64,000 bases of DNA, from NCBI GenBank assembly GCA_032128115.1, contig JAQBHB010000093.1:42577-106576 (forward strand), read 5' to 3'. The notes beneath the pieces were generated by a model. It ran no database searches. It had not been told where the DNA came from and saw nothing but the letters and a program-made list of their open reading frames with translations. The stretch is from Deltaproteobacteria bacterium (lineage in GTDB: Bacteria > Myxococcota_A > UBA9160 > SMWR01). Numbering within the stretch: the stretch's first letter is position 1; each line of letters begins with the position of its first letter. Below, in pieces: positions 25,939-62,898 of the stretch. Both the position numbers and the translations under genes were made by a program.

Positions 25939-26313
25939 ATGATGCGGATGCGGTTTGCGCGTCGGGCGCTCGGCTTCGGGCTCTTCGTTGGGGCGCTCGC
26001 CCTCGGGTGGGCCTTCGGCGGCAGGAACTCGTCCCCGATCGCCGTGGACTATCTGCTGGGGGTAACCCCGGCGGCGCCGCTGTGGGGCGTGCTGCTGGGT
26101 GCCTTTGCCATGGGAGCCGTCGGCGTGGGTGCCTGGGGCGCCTTCCAGGTGGCGAAGCTGGAGCTGGTAGCCCGCCGTTATCGCAAGCAGGTTCATGGGC
26201 TCGAATCCGAGGTCCACCAGCTTCGGAACCTGCCGCTGGCCGATGAGCCCGGGCGGGGCGACCCGCTGGCCGCCGACATCGCGCCAGGGCCTGCTCTCGG
26301 GCGGGGCGCGTAG
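25939..26313 (+). CDS. lapA: LapA-domain (DUF1049) lipopolysaccharide assembly protein A-like
   Basis: 124 aa. It has two TM helices, then a coiled segment (KLELVARRYRKQVHGLESEVHQLRNLP). Its position immediately after ihfB and before a TPR protein matches the conserved ihfB-lapA-lapB arrangement. Confidence 0.65.
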   Translation: MMRMRFARRALGFGLFVGALALGWAFGGRNSSPIAVDYLLGVTPAAPLWGVLLGAFAMGAVGVGAWGAFQVAKLELVARRYRKQVHGLESEVHQLRNLPLADEPGRGDPLAADIAPGPALGRGA

Positions 26314-26318
26314 TCCGC

Positions 26319-34884: not shown

Positions 34885-36215
34885 CGAAGGCCACCTCGGC
34901 GGAGTTCCTGGCTGCGATCCCCGCGCCCGCGGCGAGCCTGGTCGTGGAGCTGGTGTCGGTGGCGGATGCCCAGGGCCTGTCCCTATACGTGGTGGGCGGC
35001 CCCGTGCGCGACCTGCTGCTGGGTCTCCCGGTGGGCGACGTGGATCTGGTGGTGGAGGGCCGGGACGGGAAGGGCGCCGTCGAGCTGGTGCAGGCGGCCG
35101 CACCCGGATCAGCACGTCTCACCGCGCACGACCGCTTCGGGACGGTCAGCTTGCGTCTGGATGCGGCGTCGCTCGACGTGGCCACGGTGCGCAGCGAGAC
35201 CTATGCCCACGACGGGGCTCTGCCCGCCGTGGCGGCGGGCAGCCTGGAGGACGACCTGCGGCGACGAGACTTCAGCGTGAACGCATTGGCGCTGCCCCTG
35301 TCGAAGAAGGCGCGCGCGCGCCACAGTGGGATCGTGGACCTGGAAGGCGGCTTGCGCGACCTGGAGAACCGCCGGCTGCGTGTGTTGCACGAGCGCAGCT
35401 TTCACGACGATCCAACGCGCGCTCTTCGAGCGGCCCGGTTCGGCCCCCGTCTGGGCTTCTCGCTGACCCGGGGCTCGCGCCGCGCCTTGCGCGACGCCCT
35501 GCGCGATGGTGCCTTCGGCCGCGTCAGCGGCGATCGCCTGCGCCGCGAGCTGGTCAAACTCTTCGACGACGCCCACAAGGGACTCGATCCGGTGCCTGCG
35601 CTGCGGCTGCTAGACGAGTGGCATCTGCTTGGCGCGCTGGAGCCCGGGCTGACGCTGGACCGGAGCGTGGCCCCGGCGCTTCGGGCCCTGGGCCGCGCCA
35701 CCGCGTCGCCGCCCTGGCCCGGGGGACGCTGGCGCCCCTGGGCCTCGGGGCTGGCCGTGTGGCTCGCGCCGCTGGCGGCCAGCCTGCGGCGCCGGACCCT
35801 GCAGCGCTTCGCAGTGCGCGGTGCGGCGGCGACCCGCATCGCCGACTTTCCCAAGGCCCAGAAGCGCTGGCTTCGCGCCCTGGAACGGGCGCGCGGCCGC
35901 GGGGCCATCGACGAGGTGCTGAGCGAGCTCGACGAGGATGAACTGCACGCTCTGTGGGCGTGTGCGTCGCCGGCCATGCGACGTCGCGTCGTGCGTTACG
36001 CACAAGAGGATCGCTCCCGTCGGGTGCCGGTGAACGGGGACGACCTGGTGGAGCTGGGTCTCTCGGGGCCGGCATTGGGTCTTGCCCTGGTGCGCCTGCG
36101 CGCGGCCTATCTGGACGGTGCCGCGACCCGGCGGGAAGATCTGCTGGCACTGGCGCGAGAACTGGCGGGCGCGGACCGGGCGCGCAGCTCGCGCCGTGGG
36201 GCGGGGCGGCGTTGA
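34881..36215 (+). CDS. cca: CCA-adding enzyme / poly(A) polymerase-family tRNA nucleotidyltransferase
   Basis: GGPVRDLLLGLPVGDVDLVV head-domain motif and RRDFSVNAL. The GTG at 34881 overlaps the xerD stop (GTGA). The upstream part of the 554-aa ORF is an out-of-gene extension. Confidence 0.8.
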   Translation: MTKATSAEFLAAIPAPAASLVVELVSVADAQGLSLYVVGGPVRDLLLGLPVGDVDLVVEGRDGKGAVELVQAAAPGSARLTAHDRFGTVSLRLDAASLDVATVRSETYAHDGALPAVAAGSLEDDLRRRDFSVNALALPLSKKARARHSGIVDLEGGLRDLENRRLRVLHERSFHDDPTRALRAARFGPRLGFSLTRGSRRALRDALRDGAFGRVSGDRLRRELVKLFDDAHKGLDPVPALRLLDEWHLLGALEPGLTLDRSVAPALRALGRATASPPWPGGRWRPWASGLAVWLAPLAASLRRRTLQRFAVRGAAATRIADFPKAQKRWLRALERARGRGAIDEVLSELDEDELHALWACASPAMRRRVVRYAQEDRSRRVPVNGDDLVELGLSGPALGLALVRLRAAYLDGAATRREDLLALARELAGADRARSSRRGAGRR

Positions 36216-36302
36216 CGTCTGCTTGCCGCCGAGCGTGCGATTCTCCATACTCCCAGCACCCCCCCACAGCAATGTTTTCGTGCGCGCGTACGTGGAGCCC
36301 GG

Positions 36303-41749: not shown

Positions 41750-41782
41750 GAAGCCAGTTGCCCAGATCGGGTAGCTGGCTTC
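41750..41782 (-). terminator. Strong GC-rich hairpin overlapping the DUF368 stop codon (no U-tract)
   Basis: GAAGCCAG (41750-41757) pairs with CTGGCTTC (41775-41782). Roughly six further inner pairs, including G-U pairs, enclose a 5-nt loop. It sits between the DUF368 gene and the downstream lipoprotein gene. Confidence 0.3.
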
Positions 41783-42836
41783 AGCCGCCGCCGTCGTCGC
41801 TGGCGGCCTCCGGGGTGCTCTCGTGACCCAGGCGACCGATCACCAGGGTGGCCCCGAAGCCCGCCAGCACCAGGGCCAACGAGGACCCCACCTGGCCCGC
41901 GCTCGGTCTGAAGGGCTCGACGGGCCAGTACTTGGGGGCGATGTCGGGGGCGTTTGCGGCCGTGACGATGCGACCGCGCACGCTTTCCCCCACCGCTGGC
42001 GGGCGGCCCTCCTGGAAGGGCCACAGACCCACCACAGCGCCGAACAGCAGACCCAGCAGGGCACCCAGCGTGGCCTTGGCGTACCGGTCCAGGAGCCAGC
42101 GAACCAGGTTGCTGACGCCCACGACGCCGACCACGACGCCCACGCCCACGGGAAACAGCTGCACGGACGCAGTGAGAATTGCCGGAATCTCCGGTGCAAA
42201 GCCTGCGCCCGAGGCTCCCACGAGTCCGAGTCGCAGGTTCTCGATCGTGCCCAGGATCGGCTCGTACTGTCCGAGCAACAGCAGCAGGTAACCGCCGCTC
42301 ACCCCAGGCAGGATCATGGCCGCGGATCCCAGGAGTCCGGCCGCGAAGAAGAGCAGGGCGTCGGGCTCTCCATCGACCGTTCCGCTCTCCCCCAGGAGTG
42401 CCATCGCGGCGAGCGGCACGAAGGCCAACACGGCGCCCACGACGATCGCCGGTGAAAGGGGCCGCGCCATGCGCCACACCAGGGGAACCCCGCCCAGGGT
42501 GAGCCCGATGAACAGGCTGTACATGACCCAGCGCTGGGTCTCCACCAGGCCCTTGACGGTGCCCGCGAGCGTCACGATGCCGAGCCCAGCGGCGGCGGCG
42601 ATCGTCGCCAGTAGCACCAGGGATGCGGTTCGGAAGCGCAGGTTGGTGATCTCGGCGATGGCGCCGATGAATCGCGGGTAGACGCCCATGGCGAGCAGCA
42701 TGGTGCCGCCGCTGATTCCGGGCACCAGGTTCGCAAGCCCCATGAGGGTGCCTCCCGCCACCGCTCGCAACGAGAGTGCAGCGAGGATCCTCGCGGCCAG
42801 GGAGCCCTCATCGCCTGCGGGTTCCGCTTCGAACAT
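41781..42836 (-). CDS. DUF368-family membrane protein (family recently assigned as undecaprenyl-phosphate translocase, PopT-type)
   Basis: It has two internal repeats with the hallmark motifs ANLVPGISGGTMLLAMG and MILPGVSGGYLLLLLG. The likely start is MFEAEP at 42836; the upstream 92 codons of the longest ORF are non-membrane junk. Confidence 0.8.
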   Translation of the reverse strand: MFEAEPAGDEGSLAARILAALSLRAVAGGTLMGLANLVPGISGGTMLLAMGVYPRFIGAIAEITNLRFRTASLVLLATIAAAAGLGIVTLAGTVKGLVETQRWVMYSLFIGLTLGGVPLVWRMARPLSPAIVVGAVLAFVPLAAMALLGESGTVDGEPDALLFFAAGLLGSAAMILPGVSGGYLLLLLGQYEPILGTIENLRLGLVGASGAGFAPEIPAILTASVQLFPVGVGVVVGVVGVSNLVRWLLDRYAKATLGALLGLLFGAVVGLWPFQEGRPPAVGESVRGRIVTAANAPDIAPKYWPVEPFRPSAGQVGSSLALVLAGFGATLVIGRLGHESTPEAASDDGGG

Positions 42837-42888
42837 GTTCTGCTCCCGGACGAAGACGCGGTACTGTAGCAGCAGGAACTCGACTGCC

Positions 42889-43566
42889 GTGTGTGGACGC
42901 TTCACGCTCACCTCGACGCCTGAGCTGTTGGCGCGCCGCTTCGGTCTCGGAGAGGCGCCCGCCGGACTGGTCCCGCGATTCAACATCGCTCCCAGCCAGG
43001 ACGTGGCGACGATCCGCGCCCGGGAGAACGGGACGCGGGTTCTCGAGATGCGCCGTTGGGGTCTGGTGCCCTCGTGGGCTCGGGATCCGAAGATCGGAAA
43101 TCGCATGATCAACGCCCGCTCGGAGACGGTGTCCGAGAAGCCGGCCTTCCGCGAGGCCTATCGGAGCCAGCGTTGCCTGGTGCCGGCCGACGGTTTCTAC
43201 GAGTGGGCGGCGGGCAAGAGTCCGCGCCAGCCGTACCACATCGGGCTGGCGGACGGCGGCCCGTTCGCCATCGCCGCTCTGTGGGAACGCTGGTCTCACG
43301 GCGACACCGACCCGATCGATTCGTGCACCCTGCTCACCACCCGTGCCAACGCGCGCCTGACGGCGGTGCACGACCGCATGCCCGTGATTCTCGACCCTGC
43401 AGACCATGCGCTGTGGCTCGATCCCAGTGTGCGAGGAGGGGAGCCGCTGCACGCGCTGCTGCGGCCGCTGGCCGACGATCGCATTGCGATCCAGCCGGTG
43501 AGCCGGCACGTGAACGACCCCCGTCACGACGATCCGGAATGCGTGGCCCCCGCGGCCACACCCTGA
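42889..43566 (+). CDS. SOS response-associated peptidase (SRAP/YedK) abasic-site processing protein
   Basis: A GTG followed directly by TGT gives the obligatory N-terminal (M)CGRF. NIAPSQ, RWGLVPSWA, NARSET and VPADGFYEW motifs. Confidence 0.88.
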   Translation: MCGRFTLTSTPELLARRFGLGEAPAGLVPRFNIAPSQDVATIRARENGTRVLEMRRWGLVPSWARDPKIGNRMINARSETVSEKPAFREAYRSQRCLVPADGFYEWAAGKSPRQPYHIGLADGGPFAIAALWERWSHGDTDPIDSCTLLTTRANARLTAVHDRMPVILDPADHALWLDPSVRGGEPLHALLRPLADDRIAIQPVSRHVNDPRHDDPECVAPAATP

Positions 43567-48350: not shown

Positions 48351-49838
48351 CTAGTCCGACCGGGTGGGCTCGCCCTCGCCAGGCTGTGCCGTGTCGGAGG
48401 TTCCCGGTTCCGGAGCGTCCACGTATCCCAGGGCCTGCAGGGCATCGAGATCGTCGGAGGAGAGCTGTTGGGGAGTCTCGTCCCGCAGCTCCAGGCCCTT
48501 GCGCAGGATCATCAGGCGCTTGCGCAACGAGGAGGCGATCTCGGGAGCCGGGGCTACCAGATTCACCGTCTCCTTCCCCCTTCGGAAGAGCTGGCCGTGT
48601 CCCACGGTGCCTTCCAGGGAGACGATGAACTTGTAGTCCCCGTCCACTACGGCGAATCGACGCACGGCGCCCGCGCCCAGCGTCGCCATGTACGGGACGC
48701 TGTTCTCCGCATCGGCGCCCAGCGCCAGCACGTCCCGACCGCGGGGCGACCCCTCGGGCATCACGCCCAACAGGGAAAGCACCGTGGGGTAGAGGTCCAC
48801 GGCCGACACCAGGTCGTCGCGCCGCGCGGGACGCAGCTCCGGGGAGCGCACCATCAGGGGGACCCGCACGAAGGCATCCATCAGGTGCTCGCCGTGGGAG
48901 AACCAGTAGTCGCCCTCGCCCAGGGCTTCGCCGTGATCGGCCGAGAACACCACGAGGGCGTTGCGGTCGAGCCCGCGCTCACGCAGGCCGTCGAGCAGGC
49001 GCCCGACCTCCCGATCCATATAGGCCACCTCGGCGGCGTAGCCCGCGCGGTAGAAGGCGATCTCATGCTGGCCGTCCAGATACTGGTATCGGGGGATGGC
49101 GCCACGCCCGCTGTCCCCCGTCCCCTGCAGGGGGAGGCGTCGCAGGCCGCCCTCGACCCCGCGCTCGCGCGCAAGCTGAGAGTCGCGGGAGCCCGCCGGC
49201 GGGGTGTATGGCCCGTGCGGATCCTGGTAGTGCACCCAGACGAAGCAGGGCGTCGCCCGGCCATCGGTGCAGGCATCCAGCGTACCCAGGAAGGCGTCGG
49301 TCGTGTCGACCGCGACGCGTTCCGGCCAGCGGCGCACCGCTTCACGTTGGGGGAAGTCGTCGTCGTAGACGTCGAATCCGGCCGCGAGTCCCGACGAGGC
49401 CCGCAGTACGAAGTTGCTGACGACCGCGGCGGTTCGCCAGCCGTGTTGCCGCAGGCTGGCCGCCAGCGAGGGCACGTCTGCCGGAACCGCCGACTCGTTG
49501 TTGATGAGACCCAACTCTTCGGGATAACGCCCGGTGAGCAGAGCGCTGATGGAGGGGAGGGTGAGCGACGTGGCGGAGTATGCGGCTGTGAAGACGACGC
49601 TCTCGTCCGCCAGGGCGTCCAGATTCGGCGTCAGACCGCGGTCGCTTCCGTAGGCGCCCAGGTAGTCGGCGCGCAGGGTATCCACCGTGATCAGGACGAA
49701 CAGGCGAGGCGCGGGCGGACTGCAGCCCGTCCCCGCGGCGGTCAGGGTGATGGCCGGAAACACGGCGACGAGAAGGGTCGCGACCACCCGCGCCAACGCG
49801 ACCAGGGCCGGCTTCCGGGGGGTCCGCGGGCGCCTCAT
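48351..49838 (-). CDS. Sulfatase-fold (alkaline-phosphatase superfamily) lipoprotein with Thr in the nucleophile position
   Basis: It has a signal/lipobox region (LTAAGTGC), metal-site ITVDTLRAD and SATSLTLPSISALLTGRYP. The last aligns with CxPSR of true sulfatases but reads T-L-P-S-I. HGEALGE lies later in the sequence. The start was chosen at 49838. Confidence 0.75.
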   Translation of the reverse strand: MRRPRTPRKPALVALARVVATLLVAVFPAITLTAAGTGCSPPAPRLFVLITVDTLRADYLGAYGSDRGLTPNLDALADESVVFTAAYSATSLTLPSISALLTGRYPEELGLINNESAVPADVPSLAASLRQHGWRTAAVVSNFVLRASSGLAAGFDVYDDDFPQREAVRRWPERVAVDTTDAFLGTLDACTDGRATPCFVWVHYQDPHGPYTPPAGSRDSQLARERGVEGGLRRLPLQGTGDSGRGAIPRYQYLDGQHEIAFYRAGYAAEVAYMDREVGRLLDGLRERGLDRNALVVFSADHGEALGEGDYWFSHGEHLMDAFVRVPLMVRSPELRPARRDDLVSAVDLYPTVLSLLGVMPEGSPRGRDVLALGADAENSVPYMATLGAGAVRRFAVVDGDYKFIVSLEGTVGHGQLFRRGKETVNLVAPAPEIASSLRKRLMILRKGLELRDETPQQLSSDDLDALQALGYVDAPEPGTSDTAQPGEGEPTRSD

Positions 49839-49981: not shown

Positions 49982-51604
49982 ATGACGGACCCGATCGGCG
50001 CCCTGCCTCGCGGCGCGCTCACCGCCGTCCTGGTCGCTGCCAGCGTGCTCTTCGTCGCGTTGCGAGCGCCCTACTGGTCGGTTCCCCTGGAGCGCGACGA
50101 GGGCGAGTACGCCTACGTGGCACAGCGCATGCTGCAGGGCGAGGTTCCGTACCGCGACGCTTTCGACCAGAAGCCGCCTGGCGTTTTCCTGGTCTACGCC
50201 GCGGCGTTCGTCGCGTTCGGCGAGTCGATCGAATCCATCCATGGAATGATGCACCTCTTCAGTGCGGCCACCGCCCTGGTGTTGTGGTTGCTGGTGCGTC
50301 GCCTGGCGGGAGACGCCGCTAGCGCCTTTTCGGTACTGGCTTTCGCCGTGATGTCCACCGACTCGCGGATCGTGGCCACGGCGGCCAACACCGAGATCTT
50401 CATGCTGTTGCCCCTCTCGCTCTGCATGCTTGCACTGGTGCGAGCGCTGGAGGACGGTCGGGCGCGCTGGTGGCTGGCGTGCGGTGCGTTCGCGCTGGGC
50501 GCGTGCTGGATCAAGCAGGTGGCGGCGGTCAACACGGTGTTCGTGGGCCTGTTCGCGGTGGGAAGTCTGGTCCGGCGGCGAGCCGGGGCCAGGCGTGTGC
50601 TTCGCGCGGTCGCTCTCATGCTGGCCGGCGGTGCTGTGGTCTCACTGCCGCTCGCGGCGTACTTCGCGTGGCATGGAGCCTGGGCGGAGTTCGTGGATGC
50701 GGTATTCCTGCACAATCTGGCGTACAGCCAACGCATGTCGTGGGCGGCCGGATGTCGCAACGCCTGGATCGCCCTGGGACACCAGGCCCCGAGCCTTGCC
50801 GTCTTCTGGATCCTGACGCTCGCGGCGATCGTCTGGCCGCGCGCGGCGCCGCGCGAGATCCGGATCCTGCTGGCGGGGTGGACCGTGGCCTCCCTGCTGG
50901 GGGTGTCGATCGGGCTGTATTTCCGGCCCCATTACTTCATCCAGATGCTGCCGCCGCTGGCCGCCGCCGCGGGCGTGGCGGCCGGGGCAGTGGTGGGGGC
51001 CCTTCCGGCCCAACGGGCCCTGGTGCGAGGCGCGGTCGTGGCGGCTGCGATCGGAGTGCTTGGCGCGCCCGCCGTGGTGGCCAACTGGGCAACCCTGACT
51101 GCCGGGTCCCCCAACGCCGTGTCGCGCAGGATCTACGGACTGAACCCCTTCCCCGAGTCCCTGGAGATCGCCAAGTACATCCGGCGCACCAGTTCCCCGG
51201 ACGATTCGATCTACGTGATGGGATCCGAGCCCCAGATCTTCTTCTACGCCGAGCGCCGGAGCGCTACCCGTTACATCTTCTTCTATCCGTTGATGGGGGC
51301 ATTTCCCGACGCGGGCCAGCGACAGCGGGAATTGATTCGCGAGGTCCAGGCCGCGAATCCACGCTATGTGGTGGTTGCCAACCTTTCCACGTCGCTGATG
51401 GCGAACTCCAACACGGATCCCTACGTGTTCGACGAGACGAGGCGCTGGCTCGCGCGCCACTACCGGCTCGAATTCGTGGCGATTCCCCAGGCCGGGAAAC
51501 GCGAATTCGATTTCATCTACGGGAGCGGCGCTCGCGCAGCCATGGGCGATTCGGACGCTCGAGCGGCGCCCCGGGCCTGGGTCGCGGTCTTCCGGCGCTC
51601 CTGA
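49982..51604 (+). CDS. GT-C fold membrane glycosyltransferase (ArnT/PMT-like, GT39/GT83-type)
   Basis: About 540 aa. It has a first-loop acidic motif ERDEGEYAYVAQRMLQGEVPYRDAFDQKPPG, roughly 11 TM helices and a soluble C-terminal domain. Confidence 0.65.
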   Translation: MTDPIGALPRGALTAVLVAASVLFVALRAPYWSVPLERDEGEYAYVAQRMLQGEVPYRDAFDQKPPGVFLVYAAAFVAFGESIESIHGMMHLFSAATALVLWLLVRRLAGDAASAFSVLAFAVMSTDSRIVATAANTEIFMLLPLSLCMLALVRALEDGRARWWLACGAFALGACWIKQVAAVNTVFVGLFAVGSLVRRRAGARRVLRAVALMLAGGAVVSLPLAAYFAWHGAWAEFVDAVFLHNLAYSQRMSWAAGCRNAWIALGHQAPSLAVFWILTLAAIVWPRAAPREIRILLAGWTVASLLGVSIGLYFRPHYFIQMLPPLAAAAGVAAGAVVGALPAQRALVRGAVVAAAIGVLGAPAVVANWATLTAGSPNAVSRRIYGLNPFPESLEIAKYIRRTSSPDDSIYVMGSEPQIFFYAERRSATRYIFFYPLMGAFPDAGQRQRELIREVQAANPRYVVVANLSTSLMANSNTDPYVFDETRRWLARHYRLEFVAIPQAGKREFDFIYGSGARAAMGDSDARAAPRAWVAVFRRS

Positions 51605-54133: not shown

Positions 54134-54234
54134 GGAGTTCCTCGGATGGGTCGCGAATGCCCCCGTGGGCCCCATTGTGCCATTCTCCCCATCCCGCTTT
54201 CAACCGCGGCGCGCGGCGGGGGGTAGGGTTGTGG

Positions 54235-56100
54235 GTGCCATTGGACGCCGAAGCCACCTCCCACGGCGACCCGGTCCGCCGGGCGATCGATGTGCTCGGC
54301 CCCCTCGGCCTGGTGGCGCTGTTCGCAGCGCTGGCAGCCTGGAGCTGGGGCAAGTGGACCGATGTCCAGATCGATTTCGGTACCGAACTCTACCTGCCGT
54401 GGCGGATCAGCCTGGGCGATGCCCTCTATCGCGATCTCGCATCGCGCAATGGGCCCCTGTCTCATCATCTGAACGCGCTGTGGTTCCTGCTCTTCGGGGT
54501 CTCGTTGCGGACGCTGGTGTTCGCCAACCTCGCGATTCTCGCGGCGATCTCCGCCATGACCTGGGCGATCTTCCGAAGCGCTTGCGGTGCGGCGACCGCG
54601 ACCGGGGTGTGCGCCGTCCTGCTGACCGTTTTTGGCTTCTCCCAGTATGTGGCCATCGGCAATTACAACTATGTGACGCCCTATCAGCACGCCCAGACCC
54701 ACGGTCTGGCGTTGTCGATCGCGATGCTGCTGGCCCTGGCCCGGTACCTTCGGAGCCGTCGCCTCGGGTGGATGGCACTCGCCGGGGCGTGTCTCGGTCT
54801 GGTGCTTCTCACCAAGGCGGAGATCGCGGTGGCCGCGGTTTCGGCTGCCGTGGTGGGCGGGGTGTGCGTCGGCGTGTCGGAGCCGCGCGATCCGAAGCGG
54901 TGGGCGAAGCTCGCGCTCGCGTTCGCCGGCGCTGCCTGCGTTCCTCCGCTGCTTGCTTTTGCCTGGCTCGCGGCGTGCATGCCGCCGGACATGGCCCGCG
55001 TCGGCGTTCTCGGTAACTGGGCCTACCTGGACGTCGACCTGGTGAGGGATCATTTCTACGTGCACGGCGCGGGCTTCGATCGGCTGGGTGCGAACCTGGC
55101 GCGGGCGCTGGGCATGGGTCTCGCGATCGGCGCACTTCCAGCGGCGGCGTGGGCCGTGGAGCGCACCGCACCACCCGGTCGCTGGCGGACTCCGGCCGCG
55201 CTGGTCGCGGCAGGTCTCGGCTACGGCATCCTGGCGGCCCCGGGGGTGGTGCCCTGGCTGCAGGTGCCTCGGGGCCTGCCCGTCACGACACTTGCCATCG
55301 GCACCGCGGTGGCCTCGATCTGTTGGCAACGGCGAGGCGACCGGGAAGCCGTGGCGCAGTGGGGGCCGCTGGTGCTGTGGTCGGTCTTCGCCCTGGTGCT
55401 GCTGGGCAAGATGATCCTGCGCGCCCGCATCCACCAATACGGTTTCGCGCTGGCGATGCCCGCGACCCTGCTGCTGGTGGCGGCCCTGGTCCGCCTGCTT
55501 CCCGCCTGGTCCCGCGCGCGCTTGCGCGGCGGCTTGTTCAGTCTGGCGCTGGGACTCGCGGGGGTGGCGGCGGGGGTTGGTTTCTACCTGCAGCGATCGA
55601 ACGACTTCTACGCGCACAAGGACTTCGCGGTGGGAAGCGGCGGCGATCGCCTCCTGGTAGAGCCGGCGCCGGTGAACGCCCGCGGGCCGCGGGTGGCCGA
55701 GACGCTTGCGCGCCTGGGGGAGGTCGCCCCGGTCGGCTCGAGTCTTCTGGTTCTGCCTGAGGGGCTGATCCTCAACTATTGGCTTCGACTTGAAAATCCA
55801 GCCCGGTATGGTCTCTTTCTTCCAACCGAAATCGCTGCCGCGGGGGGCGGCGTCGCCATGTTGGATGACGTGCGCGCGGCCGCCCCCGACACCATCGTGT
55901 TGATGCACCGGGATCTCGCCGAGTTCGGGACACCGGCGTTCGGAAAAGCGTTGAGCAGTGGCCTCGAAATATTCGAGTGGGTGCAGGCCCACTACGAACG
56001 CACGCTGCTCATCGGCCCGCCGCCGTTCGGCGATAGCTTCGGCATCGAGATCCTCCGCCGCCGCGCGGGCTCGGGCGGACCTTCCTCAGGGCTCGACTGA
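54235..56100 (+). CDS. GT-C-like polytopic membrane glycosyltransferase (ArnT/PMT-like)
   Basis: About 620 aa. It has a first-loop acidic segment DVQIDFGTELYLPWRISLGDALYRD, 12 or more TM helices and a C-terminal soluble domain. The start is uncertain (GTG 54235 or TTG 54241). Confidence 0.5.
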   Translation: MPLDAEATSHGDPVRRAIDVLGPLGLVALFAALAAWSWGKWTDVQIDFGTELYLPWRISLGDALYRDLASRNGPLSHHLNALWFLLFGVSLRTLVFANLAILAAISAMTWAIFRSACGAATATGVCAVLLTVFGFSQYVAIGNYNYVTPYQHAQTHGLALSIAMLLALARYLRSRRLGWMALAGACLGLVLLTKAEIAVAAVSAAVVGGVCVGVSEPRDPKRWAKLALAFAGAACVPPLLAFAWLAACMPPDMARVGVLGNWAYLDVDLVRDHFYVHGAGFDRLGANLARALGMGLAIGALPAAAWAVERTAPPGRWRTPAALVAAGLGYGILAAPGVVPWLQVPRGLPVTTLAIGTAVASICWQRRGDREAVAQWGPLVLWSVFALVLLGKMILRARIHQYGFALAMPATLLLVAALVRLLPAWSRARLRGGLFSLALGLAGVAAGVGFYLQRSNDFYAHKDFAVGSGGDRLLVEPAPVNARGPRVAETLARLGEVAPVGSSLLVLPEGLILNYWLRLENPARYGLFLPTEIAAAGGGVAMLDDVRAAAPDTIVLMHRDLAEFGTPAFGKALSSGLEIFEWVQAHYERTLLIGPPPFGDSFGIEILRRRAGSGGPSSGLD

Positions 56101-57489
56101 CGCCGCGTTCCGGTAGAGCGCCCAGTGGAATCCGGAGATCGCGGCGTGCGGGAACTCCGCCACCAGCGTGTAGAGGTGGCCCCGATCGTCGCGGATGCTC
56201 TCCGGCACCCGGGCCGGGTTCTCGAGCGCATGCCGGATCACCCATTCGGGTCCTCCCGGCGGCCGCTGCTCGGCCGTGCGGTAGTCCAGACGTCGGTTCG
56301 CCGGGAGCTCGCGCGCGTAGAAGCGCAGAACCGTTCCGTTTCGGAAGTCGTGGTCACTCGAGACCACGATCGCGGGCGAATCCGTCTCCCGCGCCATCCG
56401 CAACAGCGCCTCGCGATACCCGCCGCGCCCGTACTCGAGGAAGCCCCGGATGTGGACGGCGTTGCCCGCCAGGAAACCCGCCAGGAGCACCAGACTCGCG
56501 ATTCGCCGCGCCCCTCCCCGCCGGTACAGGTCGCCAAGCAGGAAGGCCGAGAGCAGCAGCAACAAAGCGAGCGAGATCAGGAAGTAGCGGACGGCCACCA
56601 CCTCGGGTCGCAGGCTGAGCATCACCGCGACGGGCGCGATCCCGATGGCGATCGCGTACAGGATCCAGCTGTCGTCGCGCTGGCGTCGCAGCTGGCGGAT
56701 CCCGAGCGCGAGAAGGCTCGCTCCCAGGCAGGCGTACGCGAAGCCCAGGTCGCGGCTCACCCGAAGCCCCAGGCCGAAGCCGAACGTGCGCGCCAGGACC
56801 TGGTCGGCGACTGCGGGAGGGCCTCCGCCCACGGTCATCGTGTGCAGGTCGACGGCGTACAGCGCCGCCAACCCCACCAGCGGCAGGACGTGGAGCGCGG
56901 CCAGGGCCCTCACGGCGCCGGGGCGTTGCCCCAGTTGTCGCCACGACCAGACCACCGCACCCGCGTAGAAGAAGCCGAAGGCCAGGTGCGACAGGAATCC
57001 CAGAAGGGCGCTGACCGCGAACAGGGCGCGGCACCCGGGCCGGTCGCGTTCGAGGGCCCAGAGGCAGATCAGCGCGAAGAACACAGCGTACGCGTAACCG
57101 CGTGCCTCGGAGGAGAAATGCACCAGGGCGAACGACCCGGCCGCGAGCCAGGCCGCGAATACCGCCTCCGGGCGGCCCTTCCGCCAGGCGATGGCCGCCG
57201 CCAGGCCCACGCTGGCCACGCCGGCCGCGAACGCGGGCACCCGGTACCACCACCAGTCCACATGCTCGCCCAGGGCGTAGTAGATCAGGGTGTTCAGATG
57301 GTGGTTGTTCGACTGGTGGATCCGCGTGAACACCTGCAGCGGCGAGTCCAACATGCGCATGCTGGACCAGGTCCAGATCTCGTCCAGCCAGAAGTCGCCG
57401 AAGACCGGGGGCCATCGCACCGCGGCAGCAACCGCCACCGCGGCGAGGCAAAGCGCCAGGGCGAGCCGCGACCGGGTTGTTTCGCTCAC
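56086..57489 (-). CDS. GT-C fold membrane glycosyltransferase (GT39/83-like)
   Basis: 467 aa. FWLDEIWTW acidic loop-1 motif, roughly 10 TM helices and a ~110-aa C-terminal soluble domain. Its start overlaps the stop of the upstream paralogue by 4 nt. Confidence 0.6.
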   Translation of the reverse strand: MSETTRSRLALALCLAAVAVAAAVRWPPVFGDFWLDEIWTWSSMRMLDSPLQVFTRIHQSNNHHLNTLIYYALGEHVDWWWYRVPAFAAGVASVGLAAAIAWRKGRPEAVFAAWLAAGSFALVHFSSEARGYAYAVFFALICLWALERDRPGCRALFAVSALLGFLSHLAFGFFYAGAVVWSWRQLGQRPGAVRALAALHVLPLVGLAALYAVDLHTMTVGGGPPAVADQVLARTFGFGLGLRVSRDLGFAYACLGASLLALGIRQLRRQRDDSWILYAIAIGIAPVAVMLSLRPEVVAVRYFLISLALLLLLSAFLLGDLYRRGGARRIASLVLLAGFLAGNAVHIRGFLEYGRGGYREALLRMARETDSPAIVVSSDHDFRNGTVLRFYARELPANRRLDYRTAEQRPPGGPEWVIRHALENPARVPESIRDDRGHLYTLVAEFPHAAISGFHWALYRNAASVEP

Positions 57490-59146: not shown

Positions 59147-61489
59147 ATGAAGCCGGGTAGATTGGGAGGCGGGCAGGCGATCCGGATCCTCGCTCCGACC
59201 GGCCTCTTCCTGCTGGCGTTCGGGATTCGCGCCCTTCCCTGGCGCGCGGTGCTGGACGGGAGCCAGACCCACCTGTTCGGCAACGACGCTTTCTACCACT
59301 TGCGCCGCATCGCCTACTCGGTTCAGAACTTTCCCGACATCCTCGAGTTTGATCTCTACATCAATTTTCCGGACGGGGCAGTTCCAATCTGGACTCCGTA
59401 TCTGGATTGGATGATTGCCGGGATCATGGTCGCGGTGGGGATCCGGGACATGGAGGTGGTGGAGCGCGCGGCAGTCTGGCTGCCGCCGCTCCTGGGTGCG
59501 TTCACGGTCCTGACCCTGTATCGGGTCGCCCGCCGCCACTTCGGAGGGGCGACGGCCGCGGGGGCCGGCCTGATCCTGAGCCTGCTTTCCGCCCACTTCT
59601 GGTATTCGCAGATCGGTTTCGTCGACCACCACGCCGCGGTGGCGTTGGCGTCCACGCTGATTCTGGGCGCGGGCATGGCCCTGGTGTCGCAAGACGGAGC
59701 GTCCGGGTCCGGATGGGGGAGCGGCTGGCCCGCCGCCATGGCCACTGGAGTGGCCCTGGGGGTCAGTCTGCTGGTGTGGCCGGGAAGCCTGCTTCACGTC
59801 GTGCTGGCTGAGACTGGCTTCCTGGGATTCCTGCTCAGCCGCCGCGATCGCGCGGGCGCGGACGGATTCGCGCTGCGATGGATGGTTGCCAACGCGGTGG
59901 CGCTTGGGGTGGTGCTTCCCGCGTCCCTGTCCAGCCATTGGCCCCAGTGGGGCCGTTTCAGTCCGGTGGTCCTCACGGGCTTCCAACCGTGGCTGTTCGG
60001 TGTGCTGCTGGTGTTCGGCGGGATCTGCACGGGCCTTTGGCGCTCCCGGGTCGCCGGCTCGGGGCTCGCACGCCGGGCGGGCACCGGGCTGGCTGTTGGC
60101 GTGGCATTGCTCGCCGTCAGCGCATGGCTTCTTCCCGAGCTGGGGACCGGCGCCGAAGACGCCTGGCGTTGGATCGCCAAGCGCGAGAACTTCCAGGTGC
60201 GAGTGGCCGAATCCCAGCCCCTGTTGTTCCAGGGCGGCCACTTCGTGGGCGACGTGGCGTCGTCGCGCTTGTCGTACTTCGTTTTCGTGTTCCCGCTGGC
60301 CCTGGGGATCGCCGCCCGTTCCGCGCGCCGCGAGGGCGCGCCGCTGGGATTGTTCGTGTGGTGGTCGGCCGGGCTGTTCCTGGTGACGCTGGTACAGAAG
60401 CGCTTCTTCAACTCTTTCTCGGTATCCCTGGCCCTGATGATGGCCTGGAGTGTGCGTTGGGCTCTGGCGGCACTTCCCGAGCCCTGGCGCAGCGATCCGA
60501 CCCGATGGAATGCGGTCCGGGTGGCTGCGTGCGCGATCGTGGCGGCGTGTCTGTTTCCCACGCTCGCCAGCTACCGGCCCTACCTGGTGAATCAATGGCG
60601 CCTCGTGGGAGACGAAAATCTCCAGCTCGAGAATTCCTCGGCGCTACGGCGAGCCAGCGAGCAGGCGGCGCGCTGGCTGGAACGCTACTCCGTGAAGACC
60701 TCGGGCTGGCTGGACGAGCGCGTTCCGGAATACGGGGTGCTGGCCCCCTGGCCCATCGGCCACGTGATCGAATACCGGGGCCGGCGTCCCACGGTCACGG
60801 ACAACTTCGGCGACGACATCGGGGAGGAGAATTTCGAGAAGGCCAGGCGTTACTACCTGGCGGACGAGGAGGCGGCCTCTGAGATCCTGGAAGAGCTGGG
60901 TGTGCGGTACGTCTTCGCCCAGTCTGCCGCAAACTTCCTGGGCGAGGAGCCGGGCCGCTACTCCATGTTCCACGGCCTGTATGAACTCGATGGGATCGGT
61001 TTCGATCCCCCGGAAGACGATTCCGCACAGGGGCGCGTCAAGCCCCTTGCGCGGCACCGCCTGATCTACGAGTCCAGCCACCTGGCCCAGATGGGCCCGG
61101 GCAAGCCGGCCAGCTTCAAGATCTTCGAGTTCGTGGGCGGCGCCCAGATCGTTGGCACGGCGGCCCCGGGGGCCCTGGTGCGGGCAAGCGTTCCGCTTCG
61201 CACCAACCGCAAGCGAGACCTGTTGTACGCAACGTCGACGCGGGCCGACGCACGCGGGCGCTACGTGCTCCGGGTTCCCTACGCCAACGAGGGAGGGCCC
61301 ATGGCGACCCAGGTAGGCCCGGTCTACCAGCTCGAGTGCGAGGGTCAGATGAAGACCGCGATCATCTCGGAGGCCAAGGTCAAACGGGGCGGAAGCGTCC
61401 GGGGGCCACGCCTGTGCCGGCGCCCGGGTCGCAGCTCCGACGATGCGCCGGAGCGCGAATCGAGTCGCGCCGGGCCGGCGCTGCTATAG
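59147..61489 (+). CDS. STT3/AglB/PglB-family oligosaccharyltransferase-like protein with a degenerate WWDYG motif
   Basis: GNDAFYHLRR (first acidic motif, AglB-like D-x-x-YYH-R), GFVDHH (second acidic motif) and VAESQP (SVSE/TIXE-type EL5 motif, 60203-60220). PWPIGH (60746-60763) sits where WWDYG(H) is expected, followed by TVTDNFG. The ATG at 59147 lies 9 nt after GGGAGGG. Confidence 0.65.
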   Translation: MKPGRLGGGQAIRILAPTGLFLLAFGIRALPWRAVLDGSQTHLFGNDAFYHLRRIAYSVQNFPDILEFDLYINFPDGAVPIWTPYLDWMIAGIMVAVGIRDMEVVERAAVWLPPLLGAFTVLTLYRVARRHFGGATAAGAGLILSLLSAHFWYSQIGFVDHHAAVALASTLILGAGMALVSQDGASGSGWGSGWPAAMATGVALGVSLLVWPGSLLHVVLAETGFLGFLLSRRDRAGADGFALRWMVANAVALGVVLPASLSSHWPQWGRFSPVVLTGFQPWLFGVLLVFGGICTGLWRSRVAGSGLARRAGTGLAVGVALLAVSAWLLPELGTGAEDAWRWIAKRENFQVRVAESQPLLFQGGHFVGDVASSRLSYFVFVFPLALGIAARSARREGAPLGLFVWWSAGLFLVTLVQKRFFNSFSVSLALMMAWSVRWALAALPEPWRSDPTRWNAVRVAACAIVAACLFPTLASYRPYLVNQWRLVGDENLQLENSSALRRASEQAARWLERYSVKTSGWLDERVPEYGVLAPWPIGHVIEYRGRRPTVTDNFGDDIGEENFEKARRYYLADEEAASEILEELGVRYVFAQSAANFLGEEPGRYSMFHGLYELDGIGFDPPEDDSAQGRVKPLARHRLIYESSHLAQMGPGKPASFKIFEFVGGAQIVGTAAPGALVRASVPLRTNRKRDLLYATSTRADARGRYVLRVPYANEGGPMATQVGPVYQLECEGQMKTAIISEAKVKRGGSVRGPRLCRRPGRSSDDAPERESSRAGPALL

Positions 61490-61497
61490 GTACGGCC

Positions 61498-62898
61498 ATG
61501 GCGGAAGCAAGCTTCGATCTCATCGTGGTAGGGGGAGGTCCCGGCGGCTACACGGCGGCCATACGCGCCAGCCAGCTCGGCATGAATACCGCGCTCGTGG
61601 AGCGGGAGCATCTGGGCGGGATCTGCCTGAACTGGGGCTGTATCCCCACCAAGGCGTTGTTGCATGCTTCGGAGATTCGTCACCTGCTGGGGCGGCTTTC
61701 CGAGTTCGGATTCGAAGCCGGGGAGGTGACGTTCGCACTCGACAAGGTGGTGGCGCGTTCGCGAAAGGTGGCGAAGCGACTCAACGGGGGCGTCAAGCAC
61801 CTGATGAAGAAGAACGGGATCCGCGTTTTCGACGGCCAGGGCCGTCTGGCGGGTTCGGGACTTTCGGTAACGGCATCCGATGGGAGCACGACGGAGCTGC
61901 AGGCGCCTCATCGCGTGCTCGCGACCGGAGCCCGCGCACGAATCCTGCCCGGGCTCGAGCCCGATGGGGAACGGATCTGGACGTACAAGGAGGCGATGGT
62001 CCCCGACGTGATGCCGGAACGCCTGCTGGTGGTGGGCTCTGGGGCCATTGGTATCGAGTTCGCGAGCTTCTACCGCGACATGGGGTCAGAAGTCACCGTA
62101 GTGGAGATCCTGCCGCGAATCCTGCCGGCCGAAGACGAGGAGATCGCCGGGCTGGCACGCAAGTCGTTCGAACGAGAGGGAATCAGCATCCACACCGGCG
62201 CGCGGGTGGTCTCGACGACGCCCTCGGGCGATGGGGTGAGGGCCGTCCTCGAGCTCGCGGACGGCACCTCCCAGGAACTGGAAGTGGACCGGGTGATCTC
62301 CGCCGTTGGAATCGTGGGCAACACCGAGGACCTGGGCCTTGCGGGGACCGGGGTACAGGTGGACCGGGATCACGTGGTGGTCGACGAGTGGCAGCGGACC
62401 GGAGAGGCCGGCGTCTACGCCATCGGGGATCTGGTGGGCCCTCCCTGGCTGGCGCACAAGGCGAGCCACGAGGGCGTGCTTTGCGTCGAAAAGATCGCCG
62501 GGGTGGAGGGCGTGCACCCGCTCGATCGCAGCCTGATCCCCGGCTGCACCTACTGCCGGCCGCAGGTCGCCAGTGTCGGACTCAGCGAGGAGAAGGCCCG
62601 CGAGGAGGGCTACGAATTGAAGGTGGGTCGGTTCCCGTTCATCGCGAACGGAAAGGCGCTGGCCCTGGGCGAAAGCGAAGGCCTCGTCAAGACGATCTTC
62701 GATGCGCGCACCGGCGAGCTGCTGGGAGCCCACCTGTTCGGCGCCGATGTGACCGAGTTGATCCAGGGTTATGTGATCGCCCGCACGCTGGAAACCACCG
62801 AGGCTGAACTCATGCGCGCGGTGTTTCCGCATCCGACCCTCTCCGAGGCCATGCACGAGTCGGTGCTCGACGCCTGGGATCGGGCCCTCAACAGCTGA
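61498..62898 (+). CDS. lpdA: Dihydrolipoyl dehydrogenase
   Basis: DLIVVGGGPGGYTAA FAD motif, redox-active GGICLNWGCIPTK disulfide, VVGSGAIGIEF NAD motif and HPTLSE near the C-terminus. Confidence 0.93.
   Translation: MAEASFDLIVVGGGPGGYTAAIRASQLGMNTALVEREHLGGICLNWGCIPTKALLHASEIRHLLGRLSEFGFEAGEVTFALDKVVARSRKVAKRLNGGVKHLMKKNGIRVFDGQGRLAGSGLSVTASDGSTTELQAPHRVLATGARARILPGLEPDGERIWTYKEAMVPDVMPERLLVVGSGAIGIEFASFYRDMGSEVTVVEILPRILPAEDEEIAGLARKSFEREGISIHTGARVVSTTPSGDGVRAVLELADGTSQELEVDRVISAVGIVGNTEDLGLAGTGVQVDRDHVVVDEWQRTGEAGVYAIGDLVGPPWLAHKASHEGVLCVEKIAGVEGVHPLDRSLIPGCTYCRPQVASVGLSEEKAREEGYELKVGRFPFIANGKALALGESEGLVKTIFDARTGELLGAHLFGADVTELIQGYVIARTLETTEAELMRAVFPHPTLSEAMHESVLDAWDRALNS

Follow-up and report, generated by a model that had tools for sequence, protein, structure and literature searches.

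The locus and its gene neighbourhood

The window (the whole stretch of DNA that was analysed, 64,000 nucleotides) contains a gene for an STT3/AglB homologue beside the genes of four other GT-C glycosyltransferases, one of which represents a new family. The genes of this region are as follows.

48351 to 49838, - strand: sulfatase-family protein (Pfam PF00884, E = 3e-48), found in 10 related loci
49982 to 51604, + strand: 540-aa PMT_2-type GT-C glycosyltransferase (called gene; Pfam PF13231, 54.6 bits)
54157 to 56100, + strand: 647-aa PMT_2-type GT-C glycosyltransferase (called gene; Pfam PF13231, 33.6 bits), found in 8 related loci
56086 to 57489, - strand: 467-aa membrane protein of an uncharacterised GT-C-fold family, with an invariant W-L-D-E-I-W in the first loop
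57486 to 58958, - strand: 490-aa PMT_2-type GT-C glycosyltransferase (called gene; Pfam PF13231, 31.3 bits against a cutoff of 26.1)
59147 to 61489, + strand: STT3/AglB homologue (open reading frame; 780 aa, about 13 TM helices, periplasmic core domain and C-terminal AglB_L1 beta-domain)
61139 to 61396, + strand: C-terminal AglB_L1 peripheral beta-domain of this homologue, residues 665-750 (Pfam PF18079, E = 5e-16; aligned to AfAglB-L 766-864)
61498 to 62898, + strand: dihydrolipoyl-dehydrogenase-like flavoprotein (called gene; Pfam Pyr_redox_2 / Pyr_redox_dim)

The open reading frame of the STT3 homologue covers 59105/59147-61489 (+), and the public assemblies place the start at the ATG at 59147, giving the 780-aa product; an identical gene is called in both NCBI GCA_032125055.1 and a Logan assembly. 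The flavoprotein gene begins 8 nt past the STT3 stop codon and lies directly downstream in at least 11 loci. No terminator-like site was found between the two genes, which are probably co-transcribed; promoter, terminator, Rfam and tRNA scans yielded nothing. On the other side, the 490-aa PMT_2-type gene is divergent from the STT3 gene, and its orthologues are adjacent in four related loci (L025, L037, L034 and L050).

The most persistent neighbour of the STT3 homologue is the 467-aa protein, which occurs upstream in at least nine loci, some of them only 38-40 % identical. It showed no sequence match in Pfam, NCBIfam or the PDB, and its profile-profile comparison with the STT3 clade was not significant (probability 10 %). 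Its AF2 model (pLDDT 93.6) was matched by Foldseek to ALG12 (0.61), ArnT (0.57), ALG9 (0.57) and Pmt4 (0.55), and on this predicted fold it is a GT-C glycosyltransferase family. A sulfatase is also encoded near STT3 homologues from several lineages, including P0057, P0116, P0249 and P0275, and LptF/G together with an ABC exporter is found near the STT3 homologue in five loci. The presence of LptD in the window and of LptF/G in related loci indicates a diderm host.

Neither a GT-A/GT-B glycosyltransferase nor a flippase or an initiating transferase was found near the gene, among nearly all of the called genes of the window and among the recurrent neighbour clusters. A pgl/agl-type assembly operon was thus discarded, the neighbours being only GT-C enzymes, sulfatases and LptF/G-ABC components. 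About 2.6 kb downstream lies the gene of an XrtH-type exosortase (TIGR04177, 88.6 bits, cutoff 86), and the best NCBIfam match of the STT3 homologue is the archaeosortase-associated AglB; yet tblastn detected this exosortase in 0 of 47 related loci, so the link was rejected and the adjacency appears coincidental. The name Agl23 was likewise dropped for a 505-aa neighbour, which scored 28.5 bits against the TIGR03663 cutoff of 126; the literature found under that name concerns mostly unrelated plant MADS-box genes.

Homology, fold and catalytic motifs

The product of 59147-61489 is a genuine STT3/AglB homologue, as the original prediction had proposed from the sequence, and so a bacterial member of the family whose enzymes couple sugar chains to proteins in every domain of life. 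The similarity is far greater than chance would give. Pfam PF02516 (STT3), PF22627 (AglB_core-like) and PF18079 (AglB_L1) all score above their gathering cutoffs, and the profile of the clade matches A. fulgidus AglB-L (5GMY/3WAJ) with E = 4.6e-51. The AF2 model (pLDDT 88.7, pTM 0.89) superposes in Foldseek on AfAglB (7E9S) with a TM of 0.77 and E = 4.9e-30, compared with 0.52-0.60 for eukaryotic STT3, 0.55 for DPY19 and 0.48 for PglB. Pfam, AF2 and Foldseek together give the multi-span N-terminal domain and C-terminal core of the GT-C fold of GT66/PF02516. The TIGR04154 score (archaeosortase-A-associated AglB) is below the cutoff, 312 against 450 bits, and the name given by the current automatic annotation, 'dolichyl-diphosphooligosaccharide--protein glycosyltransferase', probably over-states what is known.

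The motifs ascribed to the catalytic centre are located as follows.

59279 to 59308, + strand: GNDAFYHLRR, residues 45-54, first acidic (DXD-type) motif in external loop 1, with D47; aligned to AfAglB GNDPWYYYR
59615 to 59632, + strand: GFVDHH, residues 157-162, second acidic/metal motif D160-H161-H162; aligned to AfAglB GFNDHH
60200 to 60220, + strand: RVAESQP, residues 352-358, TIXE/SVSE-type motif in external loop 5 (EL5), with E355; aligned to AfAglB TIAEVYP
60395 to 60409, + strand: QKRFF, residues 417-421, with the conserved Arg R419, equivalent to AfAglB R426; aligned to AfAglB QNRF

The strings quoted in the original prediction, GNDAFYHLRR, GFVDHH, (V)RVAESQP, APWPIGH (residues 533-539) and TVTDNFG (within residues 546-557), are all present in the protein, and HMMER pairs the first three with their AfAglB counterparts, as had been expected of the acidic motifs. 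[quoted passage not shown]

Conservation was measured over 243 full-length relatives, down to about 31 % identity. In this set the per-site variability of the catalytic residues falls in the 0-4th percentile: the entropy is 0.00 bits at D47 (which aligns to AfAglB D47), Q417 and R419, 0.04-0.08 bits at D160, H161 and H162, and 0.08 bits at E355, with the neighbouring V353 likewise conserved. The lower pLDDT of the EL5 region, 68-72, is as expected for a mobile loop. For six locus pairs the whole-gene dN/dS was 0.15-0.43, and these genes are therefore not pseudogenes. The suggestion that the enzyme could be catalytically altered finds no support, given the near invariance of D47, D160/H161/H162, E355 and R419 and this purifying selection.

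The closest known protein, both by sequence and by structure, is A. fulgidus AglB-L (3WAJ, 3WAK, 5GMY, 7E9S; TIGR04154 subfamily), which has the same order of domains (STT3 TM domain, AglB core, AglB_L1 peripheral beta-domain) and shares GND..Y, G-F-x-D-H-H, the TIXE-type Glu and the Q-x-R-F Arg. That subfamily is euryarchaeal, whereas the host here is a diderm bacterium with a bacterial XrtH-type exosortase nearby. Campylobacter PglB (3RCE, 5OGL, 6GXC) is likewise a single-subunit bacterial STT3-family protein with the GT-C fold, and the catalytic Asp/Glu logic is common to both; its WWDYG, MI motif and pgl glycan-assembly operon, however, have no equivalent here, and the clade profile found none of the PglB chains at E <= 1.

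Motifs of the acceptor pocket

The WWDXG motif has been described as shared by STT3, AglB and PglB, the fourth position being the only one at which variation is reported (PMC11407970; PMC5131992), and it is given as the structural reason for the requirement of N-glycosylation for Ser/Thr at +2 (PMC8342417). The corresponding slot and the other regions of the acceptor pocket were mapped as follows.

60743 to 60763, + strand: APWPIGH, residues 533-539, WWDYG slot; ungapped to SWWDYGH (3WAJ/5GMY) and WWDYGN (3VGP/3VU0)
60782 to 60817, + strand: RRPTVTDNFGDD, residues 546-557, DGGK/DNXT slot after WWDYG; aligned to HRMPIANPFQAG (AglB-L) and KKAVVANNFQ (AglB-S1)
60923 to 60979, + strand: SAANFLGEEPGRYSMFHGL, residues 593-611, DK/MI-equivalent region, mapping tentative; profile alignment to AglB-S1 3VGP 'DEITMKD---ANNTKFPAIM'

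The HMMER alignment of the first slot contains no gaps, and YGV and GH anchor it on either side. Pro534 stands in place of the first Trp, Pro536 in place of the Asp and Ile537 in place of the Tyr; the second Trp (W535), G538 and H539 are kept. A search for WWD elsewhere in the 780-aa protein found none; the sole other WW is the WWS at 405-407, situated within a predicted helix (H398-417) of the protein's hydrophobic N-terminal half, and therefore no canonical WWDYG is concealed in another part of the chain. The predicted replacement of WWDYG thus withstood the check set for it beforehand.

This replacement extends to the relatives, 258 of 259 of which lack WWD. The entropy percentiles along the slot are 49 % for P534, 7 % for W535, 96 % for P536, 85 % for I537, 1 % for G538 and 2 % for H539; W535 is conserved at 94 %, G538 and H539 are invariant, and the Asp-equivalent site 536 belongs to the most variable 4 % of sites. 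Even close relatives differ at the Asp position, which may be Gly, Pro, Thr, His, Tyr, Phe or another residue; Asp or Glu is found there in 64 of the 259, and Asp one position later in 41. A nested pair, P0249 and P0260, reads WWDLG. The string PWPIG, for which the original prediction had raised the question whether it defines a clade, is rare (about 9 of the 259, the preceding residue being ignored) and cannot serve as a marker, as the third and fourth slot positions differ even among close relatives; the clade is defined instead by [AS]-x-W-x-x-G-H, with the core x-W-x-x-G-H.

In the second slot R547, P548, N553, F554 and G555 are conserved. TVTDNFG is aligned by HMMER to PIANPFQ of A. fulgidus AglB-L, so that D552-N553-F554-G555 stands opposite NPFQ/NNFQ in the Archaeoglobus AglBs; this segment matches neither DGGK nor the DNXT sequon. 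The mapping of the third region comes from a low-confidence stretch of one profile alignment, AfAglB-L itself being unaligned across it, and tentatively equates the Asp of the DK/MI motif with S593, the Met with F597, the Lys with M607 and the Ile/Met with L611. Positions 593-596 lie in the 93rd-99th entropy percentile and L611 in the 8th. On this tentative alignment the DK motif has apparently lost its Asp and Lys. Part of the +2 pocket may survive, because W535 and L611, the latter at the tentative hydrophobic position of DK/MI, are kept. Compared with A. fulgidus AglB-L, which has WWDYG, the 780-aa protein thus has PWPIG, and in its clade the DK Asp and Lys are not conserved (tentative mapping); residues ~616-765 of AglB-L are without counterpart in the alignment to the clade.

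The relatives originate from uncultured Myxococcota-type bacteria, all members of the clade being derived from MAGs or metagenomes. Further, more distant WWD-less branches include Thermoanaerobaculia, the sole deeper branch of known taxonomy. Intact full-length ORFs were found in about 250 clusters, and two to three paralogues are maintained per genome. Paralogues in one genome differ in the slot (TAWGDGH, APWG[YF]GH, xxWTHGH), and each slot is identical or nearly so in orthologues only 43-58 % identical overall, which suggests that the paralogous lineages could have lineage-specific acceptor rules. Ranked by association with subgroup, position 536 comes 7th among 734 columns and 15th among 722 (top 1-2 %), a moderate support for such tuning; within the subgroups its entropy is 1.3-2.3 bits, so that relaxed constraint at 536 is possible instead of a tuned specificity.

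A bacterial AglB-type protein that retains the motif, P0275, is placed by the NJ tree outside the WWD-less group. Its neighbours include a sigma-54 enhancer-binding protein, with a sulfatase nearby, which indicates a bacterial origin. The N-terminal motifs of the clade recur in it almost unchanged, as GNDAWYHL and GFVDHH, but it keeps WWDYG and the archaeal-type 'HRIPNANPTQ', where the clade has x-W-x-x-G-H followed by 'RRPxVxDNFGDD'. Bacterial Stt3/AglB homologues have been noted by Lombard 2016 (PMC4973528). No description of WWD-less bacterial STT3/AglB homologues was found in the literature, subscription-only papers aside, and as far as that literature goes the clade is previously undescribed.

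Possible function and meaning of the altered pocket

The protein may be an active AglB-type (GT66, GT-C fold) oligosaccharyltransferase of an uncultured Myxococcota-like diderm bacterium, in which recognition of the +2 Ser/Thr has been rebuilt; from the sequence evidence we give this reading an even chance of being correct. The AfAglB equivalents of D47, D160 and H161/H162 surround the divalent metal; those of R419 and W211 are R426 and W215, the former of which is near the phosphate of the lipid carrier; and those of D47 and E355 (in the mobile EL5) activate the acceptor carboxamide. Since the complete AglB/STT3 catalytic apparatus is kept, transfer of a polyprenyl-phosphate-linked glycan is the most likely activity, the donor being presumably located at the periplasmic face of the inner membrane. 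The acceptor would thread under EL5 and receive the glycan en bloc; an Asn in a secreted or envelope protein is the most probable candidate. The neighbouring ALG/ArnT/PMT-like GT-C enzymes would probably build or extend the glycan in the periplasm from polyprenyl-phosphate monosaccharides. The position of the AglB-type gene beside several PMT_2/GT-C genes resembles the situation in Haloferax volcanii, where AglB acts with AglS, a PMT_2/GT-C Dol-P-mannose transferase at the outer face of the membrane; that system, encoded with an agl gene cluster, uses dolichol carriers and a canonical WWDYG.

The pocket of characterised oligosaccharyltransferases reads the +2 Ser/Thr hydroxyl (PMC8342417). In the present protein it is changed, with WWD replaced by P-W-x, the DK Asp and Lys apparently gone and only W535 and the hydrophobic L611 left. 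With the WWD/DK pocket altered in this way, the acceptor site would not be chosen by the canonical N-x-S/T hydrogen-bond network, and a different glycosylation rule is probable, because the catalytic centre is intact and WWD is replaced. The loss of +2 reading that had been inferred originally is thus upheld in part: the absence of WWD in 258 of 259 relatives, the 96th percentile of the Asp site and, on the tentative alignment, the apparent loss of the DK residues speak for it, while the retention of W535 and L611 speaks against a complete loss. A non-canonical Asn site, an O-linked site and a non-protein molecule are the candidate acceptors that were named with this inference.

These retained residues are also the basis for regarding the enzyme as a conventional N-x-S/T oligosaccharyltransferase, in which the Ser/Thr pocket is rebuilt with other hydrogen-bond partners around W535 and L611, together with nearby conserved residues, be it H539, R547 or, in the W-G-D-G-H variants, a shifted Asp. 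Residual Ser/Thr reading is possible, given that W535 and L611 are still there and that Asp or Glu fills the Asp position in about a quarter of the members, and the WWDLG of P0249 and P0260 implies that the scaffold is still able to host the canonical motif. We nevertheless consider this explanation unlikely, in view of the high variability of the Asp-equivalent position, the apparent loss of the polar DK residues (tentative alignment) and the restriction of reported WWDXG variation to the fourth position. To our knowledge both Trp and the Asp are effectively invariant in characterised oligosaccharyltransferases, and their mutation is strongly deleterious.

Retention of the donor and metal site together with loss of the peptide-reading motifs would suit a non-protein acceptor as well (an envelope polysaccharide, an LPS/lipid component or a periplasmic glycan), or hydrolysis of the lipid-linked oligosaccharide with release of free oligosaccharide. 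The envelope-related neighbours (PMT_2/ArnT-like GT-Cs, sulfatases, LptF/G and the ABC exporter in five loci) agree with this, and neither a glycoprotein substrate nor a pgl/agl operon could be identified nearby. A precedent for other acceptor chemistry on the same fold is the C-mannosyltransferase DPY19 (7ZLG/H/I; TM 0.55), which shares the GT-C architecture with ALG, PMT and ArnT and reads another peptide acceptor on an STT3-like fold without WWD; beyond the fold, however, there is no detectable sequence homology to DPY19, ALG, PMT or ArnT, and the clade keeps AglB-specific motifs and C-terminal domains. The Glu of TIXE/SVSE is taken to activate the Asn amide. The invariance of E355, the conservation of V353 and an EL5 kept with its typical flexibility in the AF2 model are peptide/Asn-specific features and would be unexpected for a glycan or lipid acceptor, so that a non-protein acceptor or hydrolysis seems rather unlikely, even though hydrolysis of lipid-linked oligosaccharides is known for oligosaccharyltransferases (PMC8342417). 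That the protein is an inactive relic, decaying or purely structural, might be supposed from the loss of a motif held essential for catalysis in all characterised enzymes (PMC11407970; PMC5131992), but it is very improbable: the residues that bind metal, phosphate and carboxamide do not vary across hundreds of sequences, the dN/dS values are low, the ORFs and paralogues are maintained and the model is confidently folded.

A wider proposal, more tentative than that of an active transferase with rebuilt recognition and one that may well prove wrong, is that of a large bacterial AglB-type radiation which N-glycosylates without the supposedly universal N-x-S/T rule, with a paralogue-tuned +2 determinant or none, and which acts with periplasmic ALG/PMT-like GT-Cs in a 'lumenal-type' pathway of Myxococcota-like bacteria. 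ALG1/ALG2-type machinery has recently been reported to be functional in Polyangia (bioRxiv 10.1101/2025.10.15.682550), and such a GT-C/AglB-type pathway may be its missing outer half.

In this clade of hundreds of sequence clusters the catalytic residues are under purifying selection and the WWD and DK positions are free to vary, and it may therefore be regarded as a natural experiment in which the choice of the acceptor site is uncoupled from catalysis. If the enzymes do act on proteins, they would disclose a new rule for choosing acceptor sites, bring N-glycosylation to a bacterial phylum not so far known for it and provide single-subunit enzymes for glyco-engineering at sequon-less sites; if their acceptors are not proteins, they would be the first case of the STT3 family proper being re-purposed.

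Homology and the WWDYG slot of the STT3 homologue

The open reading frame of the STT3 homologue occupies positions 59105/59147-61489 on the + strand of the window; the ATG at 59147 is the called start in NCBI GCA_032125055.1 and in a Logan assembly, and gives a protein of 780 residues. The five motif strings quoted in the original prediction were all found in the protein, each aligned to its counterpart in Archaeoglobus fulgidus AglB-L (AfAglB).

Motifs of the STT3 homologue and their AfAglB counterparts
Residues 45-54: GNDAFYHLRR; AfAglB GNDPWYYYR
Residues 157-162: GFVDHH; AfAglB GFNDHH
Residues 352-358: RVAESQP; AfAglB TIAEVYP
Residues 533-539: APWPIGH; AfAglB SWWDYGH
Within residues 546-557: TVTDNFG; AfAglB PIANPFQ

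The alignment crosses the WWDYG slot (residues 533-539) without gaps, with a YGV anchor before it and a GH anchor after it. No WWD is present elsewhere in the 780-aa protein, the sole other WW being the WWS at 405-407, located in a helix predicted for the hydrophobic N-terminal half. The Pfam domains STT3, AglB_core-like and AglB_L1 were all recognised over their gathering cutoffs. No NCBIfam model accepts the protein, the top one being TIGR04154 (archaeosortase-A-associated oligosaccharyl transferase) with 312 bits, below its 450-bit cutoff.

Among solved structures, the single query sequence matched A. fulgidus AglB-L (3WAJ/5GMY) with E = 2e-20; a profile of 45 clade sequences matched it with E = 4.6e-51 and human STT3A with just E = 4e-4, and gave no match to Campylobacter PglB. 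The AlphaFold2 model, computed from an alignment of the clade (pLDDT 88.7, pTM 0.89), was nearest in Foldseek to AfAglB (TM 0.77, E = 5e-30), followed by eukaryotic STT3 (TM 0.52-0.60), DPY19 (0.55) and PglB (0.48). Since a canonical WWDYG was sought elsewhere in vain, and since the Pfam domains, the AglB-L profile match and the Foldseek result all confirm homology, the original prediction that an STT3 homologue carries PWPIG in place of WWDYG is upheld. By descent and fold the protein belongs to the STT3/AglB family, nearest to euryarchaeal AglB-L and not of the PglB type.

Slot variation, descent and hosts

A word-indexed search returned 215 relatives; the best 120 of these 215 were examined and are almost all full length (~640-850 aa), with the same Pfam domains as the query. 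When all 1.84 billion cluster representatives were scanned with HMMER, 530 matched below 1e-30, and the slot was aligned in 259 of these, with identity down to ~31 %. The consensus across the 259 is [AS]-x-W-x-x-G-H. The first Trp position holds Pro in 165/259, the second retains Trp in 244/259, and the final Gly and His are retained in 255/259 and 254/259, respectively. The Asp position is occupied by Gly (53), Glu (33), Asp (31), Pro (30), Thr (26), Ser (24) and others, and the Tyr position mostly by Leu (90), Asp (41) and Ile (35).

A WWDLG slot was found only in the relative P0249 and in the later-found P0260 (58 % identical to P0249; locus L052), together with the clade-specific RRPTVVDNFGDD segment. 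A search seeded with P0249 reached deeper WWD-less branches, one of which, including a Thermoanaerobaculia protein, has the slot APWS[LA]GH and DQH instead of DHH, while a second has H[AP]NLGH. The only proteins with canonical WWDYG in that search were P0275/P0281 and P0278-P0280, the last three being of the archaeosortase-A type.

In a neighbour-joining tree rooted on these canonical sequences, all WWD-less proteins formed one group with the P0249/P0260 pair nested within it, so that the WWD of this pair may be a secondary regain. The topology fits one ancestral loss of WWD followed by such a regain, a reading that is provisional because the tree carries no bootstrap values. At locus L053 the gene of P0275 adjoins that of a sigma-54 enhancer-binding protein, which marks P0275 as bacterial; therefore WWD was probably lost within Bacteria, after the AglB-type gene had come from Euryarchaeota. 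This is consistent with Lombard 2016 (PMC4973528), where the few Stt3 homologues known from bacteria were placed within the euryarchaeal clade. In its N-terminal motifs P0275 hardly differs from the WWD-less clade, yet its WWDYG is canonical; it is a candidate intermediate before motif loss.

The host survey, in which one genome per species was scanned, gave 47 loci, mostly from MAGs labelled Myxococcota, Myxococcales or Deltaproteobacteria, the remaining labels being Spirochaetales/Spirochaetaceae, Phycisphaerae, Proteobacteria and 'uncultured bacterium'. In its gene content the window is an ordinary stretch of bacterial chromosome, with LptD, the trp operon, RpsA and GlnD, as well as a XerC/D-type recombinase, ScpAB and an AmiC-type amidase.

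Several of the surveyed genomes contain 2 or 3 paralogues. Their slots read TAWGDGH, APWGYGH and AFWTHGH in OC6_3000m_MAG_334, and TAWGDGH, APWGFGH and SLWTHGH in MFD05684.bin.2.192; orthologues across genomes have identical or nearly identical slots at merely 43-58 % overall identity, and paralogues are 37-48 % identical to one another. Column-wise association with subgroup was ranked at a tighter (734 columns) and a looser (722 columns) clustering cut. Position 536 ranked 7th/734 and 15th/722, and position 537 ranked 23rd/722 at the looser cut but just 339th/734 at the tighter one; the entropy of position 536 inside subgroups is still 1.3-2.3 bits. From these alignments position 536 may be read as a fast-evolving, partly lineage-specific site, and the slot pattern would be compatible with diversification of acceptor specificity, though it does not speak against relaxed constraint.

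Gene neighbourhood

The STT3 gene is divergent from the genes of a 490-aa PMT_2 protein (a GT-C glycosyltransferase family of Pfam) and a 467-aa membrane protein; two more PMT_2 proteins, a sulfatase and a Band_7 protein are also encoded upstream.

Features around the STT3 homologue
788-1936, - strand: sulfotransferase (PF13469)
1810-3165, - strand: GH1 glycoside hydrolase
41781-43112, - strand: VCA0040-like/DUF368 protein (Pfam 'undecaprenyl phosphate translocase-like', E = 4e-41)
48351-49838, - strand: sulfatase-family gene, a recurrent neighbour
56086-57489, - strand: 467-aa membrane protein, GT-C fold predicted
61498-62898, + strand: lpd-like (dihydrolipoyl-dehydrogenase-like) gene, starting 8 nt past the STT3 stop codon
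~64116-64760, just beyond the window end (locus L001, 9953-10597): XrtH exosortase (TIGR04177, 88.6 against an 86-bit cutoff)

The 467-aa protein has no sequence match in Pfam, NCBIfam or PDB. It belongs to a family of >260 proteins with an invariant first-loop W-L-D-E-I-W, and its model (pLDDT 93.6) shows a GT-C fold, with scores of 0.61 to ALG12, 0.57 to ArnT, 0.57 to ALG9 and 0.55 to Pmt4. In at least 9 loci, some just 38-40 % identical to the query, the gene is found upstream of the STT3 homologue, as a rule directly next to it, and the arrangement recurs in independently called contigs. The family appears to comprise undescribed GT-C glycosyltransferases linked to WWD-less AglB genes.

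In many lineages, sulfatase genes are found at a distance of a few kb from AglB-type genes (also at loci L050, L051, L052 and L053), among them one next to the WWDLG member and one near the canonical-WWDYG P0275. The glycan may be sulfated, or the sulfatase may itself be a substrate. LptF/G and an ABC exporter are found upstream of the STT3 homologue in five loci, and no pgl/agl-type assembly operon was present at any locus examined.

The lpd-like gene directly follows the STT3 homologue in at least 11 related loci, and the gap between the two contains no terminator-like site; a flavoprotein of this kind beside a membrane glycosyltransferase is an odd pairing. The XrtH exosortase is followed by a 171-aa ORF without a family match, and a link of the exosortase to STT3 was rejected, the adjacency being kept in 0/47 related loci. 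The VCA0040-like/DUF368 gene precedes the GT-C cluster by 16 kb and may bear on lipid-carrier recycling. The longest ORFs of the sulfotransferase and GH1 genes overlap by ~125 nt, so that one true start is probably further in. GC3-based calling gave no clear gene in 27350-29600 or 34880-36300; the candidate ORFs at 27485-29689 (-, 734 aa) and 34676-35941 (+, 421 aa) have no Pfam match, and the former is overlapped by a 1291-aa ORF at 26195-30070 (+).

Acceptor recognition and standing in the family

Per-site entropy among 243 full-length relatives
D47: 0.00 bits, percentile 0
D160: 0.04 bits, percentile 1
H161: 0.04 bits, percentile 1
H162: 0.08 bits, percentile 2
W211: 0.15 bits, percentile 4
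E355: 0.08 bits, percentile 2
Q417: 0.00 bits, percentile 0
R419: 0.00 bits, percentile 0
P534 (slot): 2.17 bits, percentile 49
W535 (slot): 0.32 bits, percentile 7
P536 (slot, Asp position): 3.37 bits, percentile 96
I537 (slot): 3.07 bits, percentile 85
G538 (slot): 0.04 bits, percentile 1
H539 (slot): 0.08 bits, percentile 2

The conserved residues from D47 to R419 correspond to D47, D161-H163, W215, E360 and R426 of AfAglB. In PglB and AglB, D47 and the Glu of TIXE hold the acceptor carboxamide, and the DK/MI motif forms the other half of the Ser/Thr pocket. The DK/MI region was alignable only via the minimal AglB-S1 domain (3VGP), and the mapping, which is tentative, puts S593 at the Asp position, F597 at that of Met, M607 at that of Lys and L611 at that of Ile/Met; residues 593-596 are at the 93rd-99th entropy percentile and L611 is at the 8th. 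If this mapping is right, the pocket would have lost all its polar residues (Trp1, Asp, DK-Asp and DK-Lys), and the two retained, W535 and L611, would be hydrophobic or aromatic. In the AfAglB structure, D161 and H162 lie near the metal, R426 lies near the phosphate site, and the TIXE segment pairs with the sequon backbone (PMC8342417). The metal, phosphate and TIXE-type residues are matched in the query, whereas WWDYG has become PWPIG.

On these comparisons the likeliest reading, at about even odds, is that the protein is an active AglB-type transferase. As in AfAglB, it would bind a divalent metal together with a glycan linked to polyprenyl phosphate, D47 and E355 would activate the acceptor carboxamide, and the site would be chosen without the canonical hydrogen-bond network to the +2 hydroxyl; the neighbouring GT-C enzymes would plausibly assemble or extend the glycan at the periplasmic side. 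A non-protein acceptor, or a role as hydrolase, would suit the envelope-related neighbours and the disappearance of the peptide-reading motifs, but is rather unlikely, as E355 is invariant, V353 is conserved and the TIXE-type segment serves peptide-backbone pairing in AfAglB. It is likewise improbable that the enzyme still uses N-x-S/T through a rebuilt pocket: W535, L611 and the acidic residues that are often present would agree with this, and the free variation at the Asp position speaks against it. A pseudo-enzyme is very hard to credit, being contradicted by the conservation pattern and by whole-gene dN/dS, which at 0.15-0.43 in six locus pairs indicates that the genes are maintained and are not relics.

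In PMC11407970, PMC5131992 and PMC8342417 the WWDXG motif is presented as a shared feature of STT3, AglB and PglB that varies at position 4 alone, and uncharacterised variation in some archaeal paralogues receives passing mention only. A literature search found no account of a WWD-less bacterial STT3/AglB clade, and annotation pipelines name the relatives as ordinary oligosaccharyltransferases. As the STT3 homologue lacks WWDXG, and on the alignment probably the DK/MI motif too, it is not to be classed as a canonical N-x-S/T oligosaccharyltransferase.
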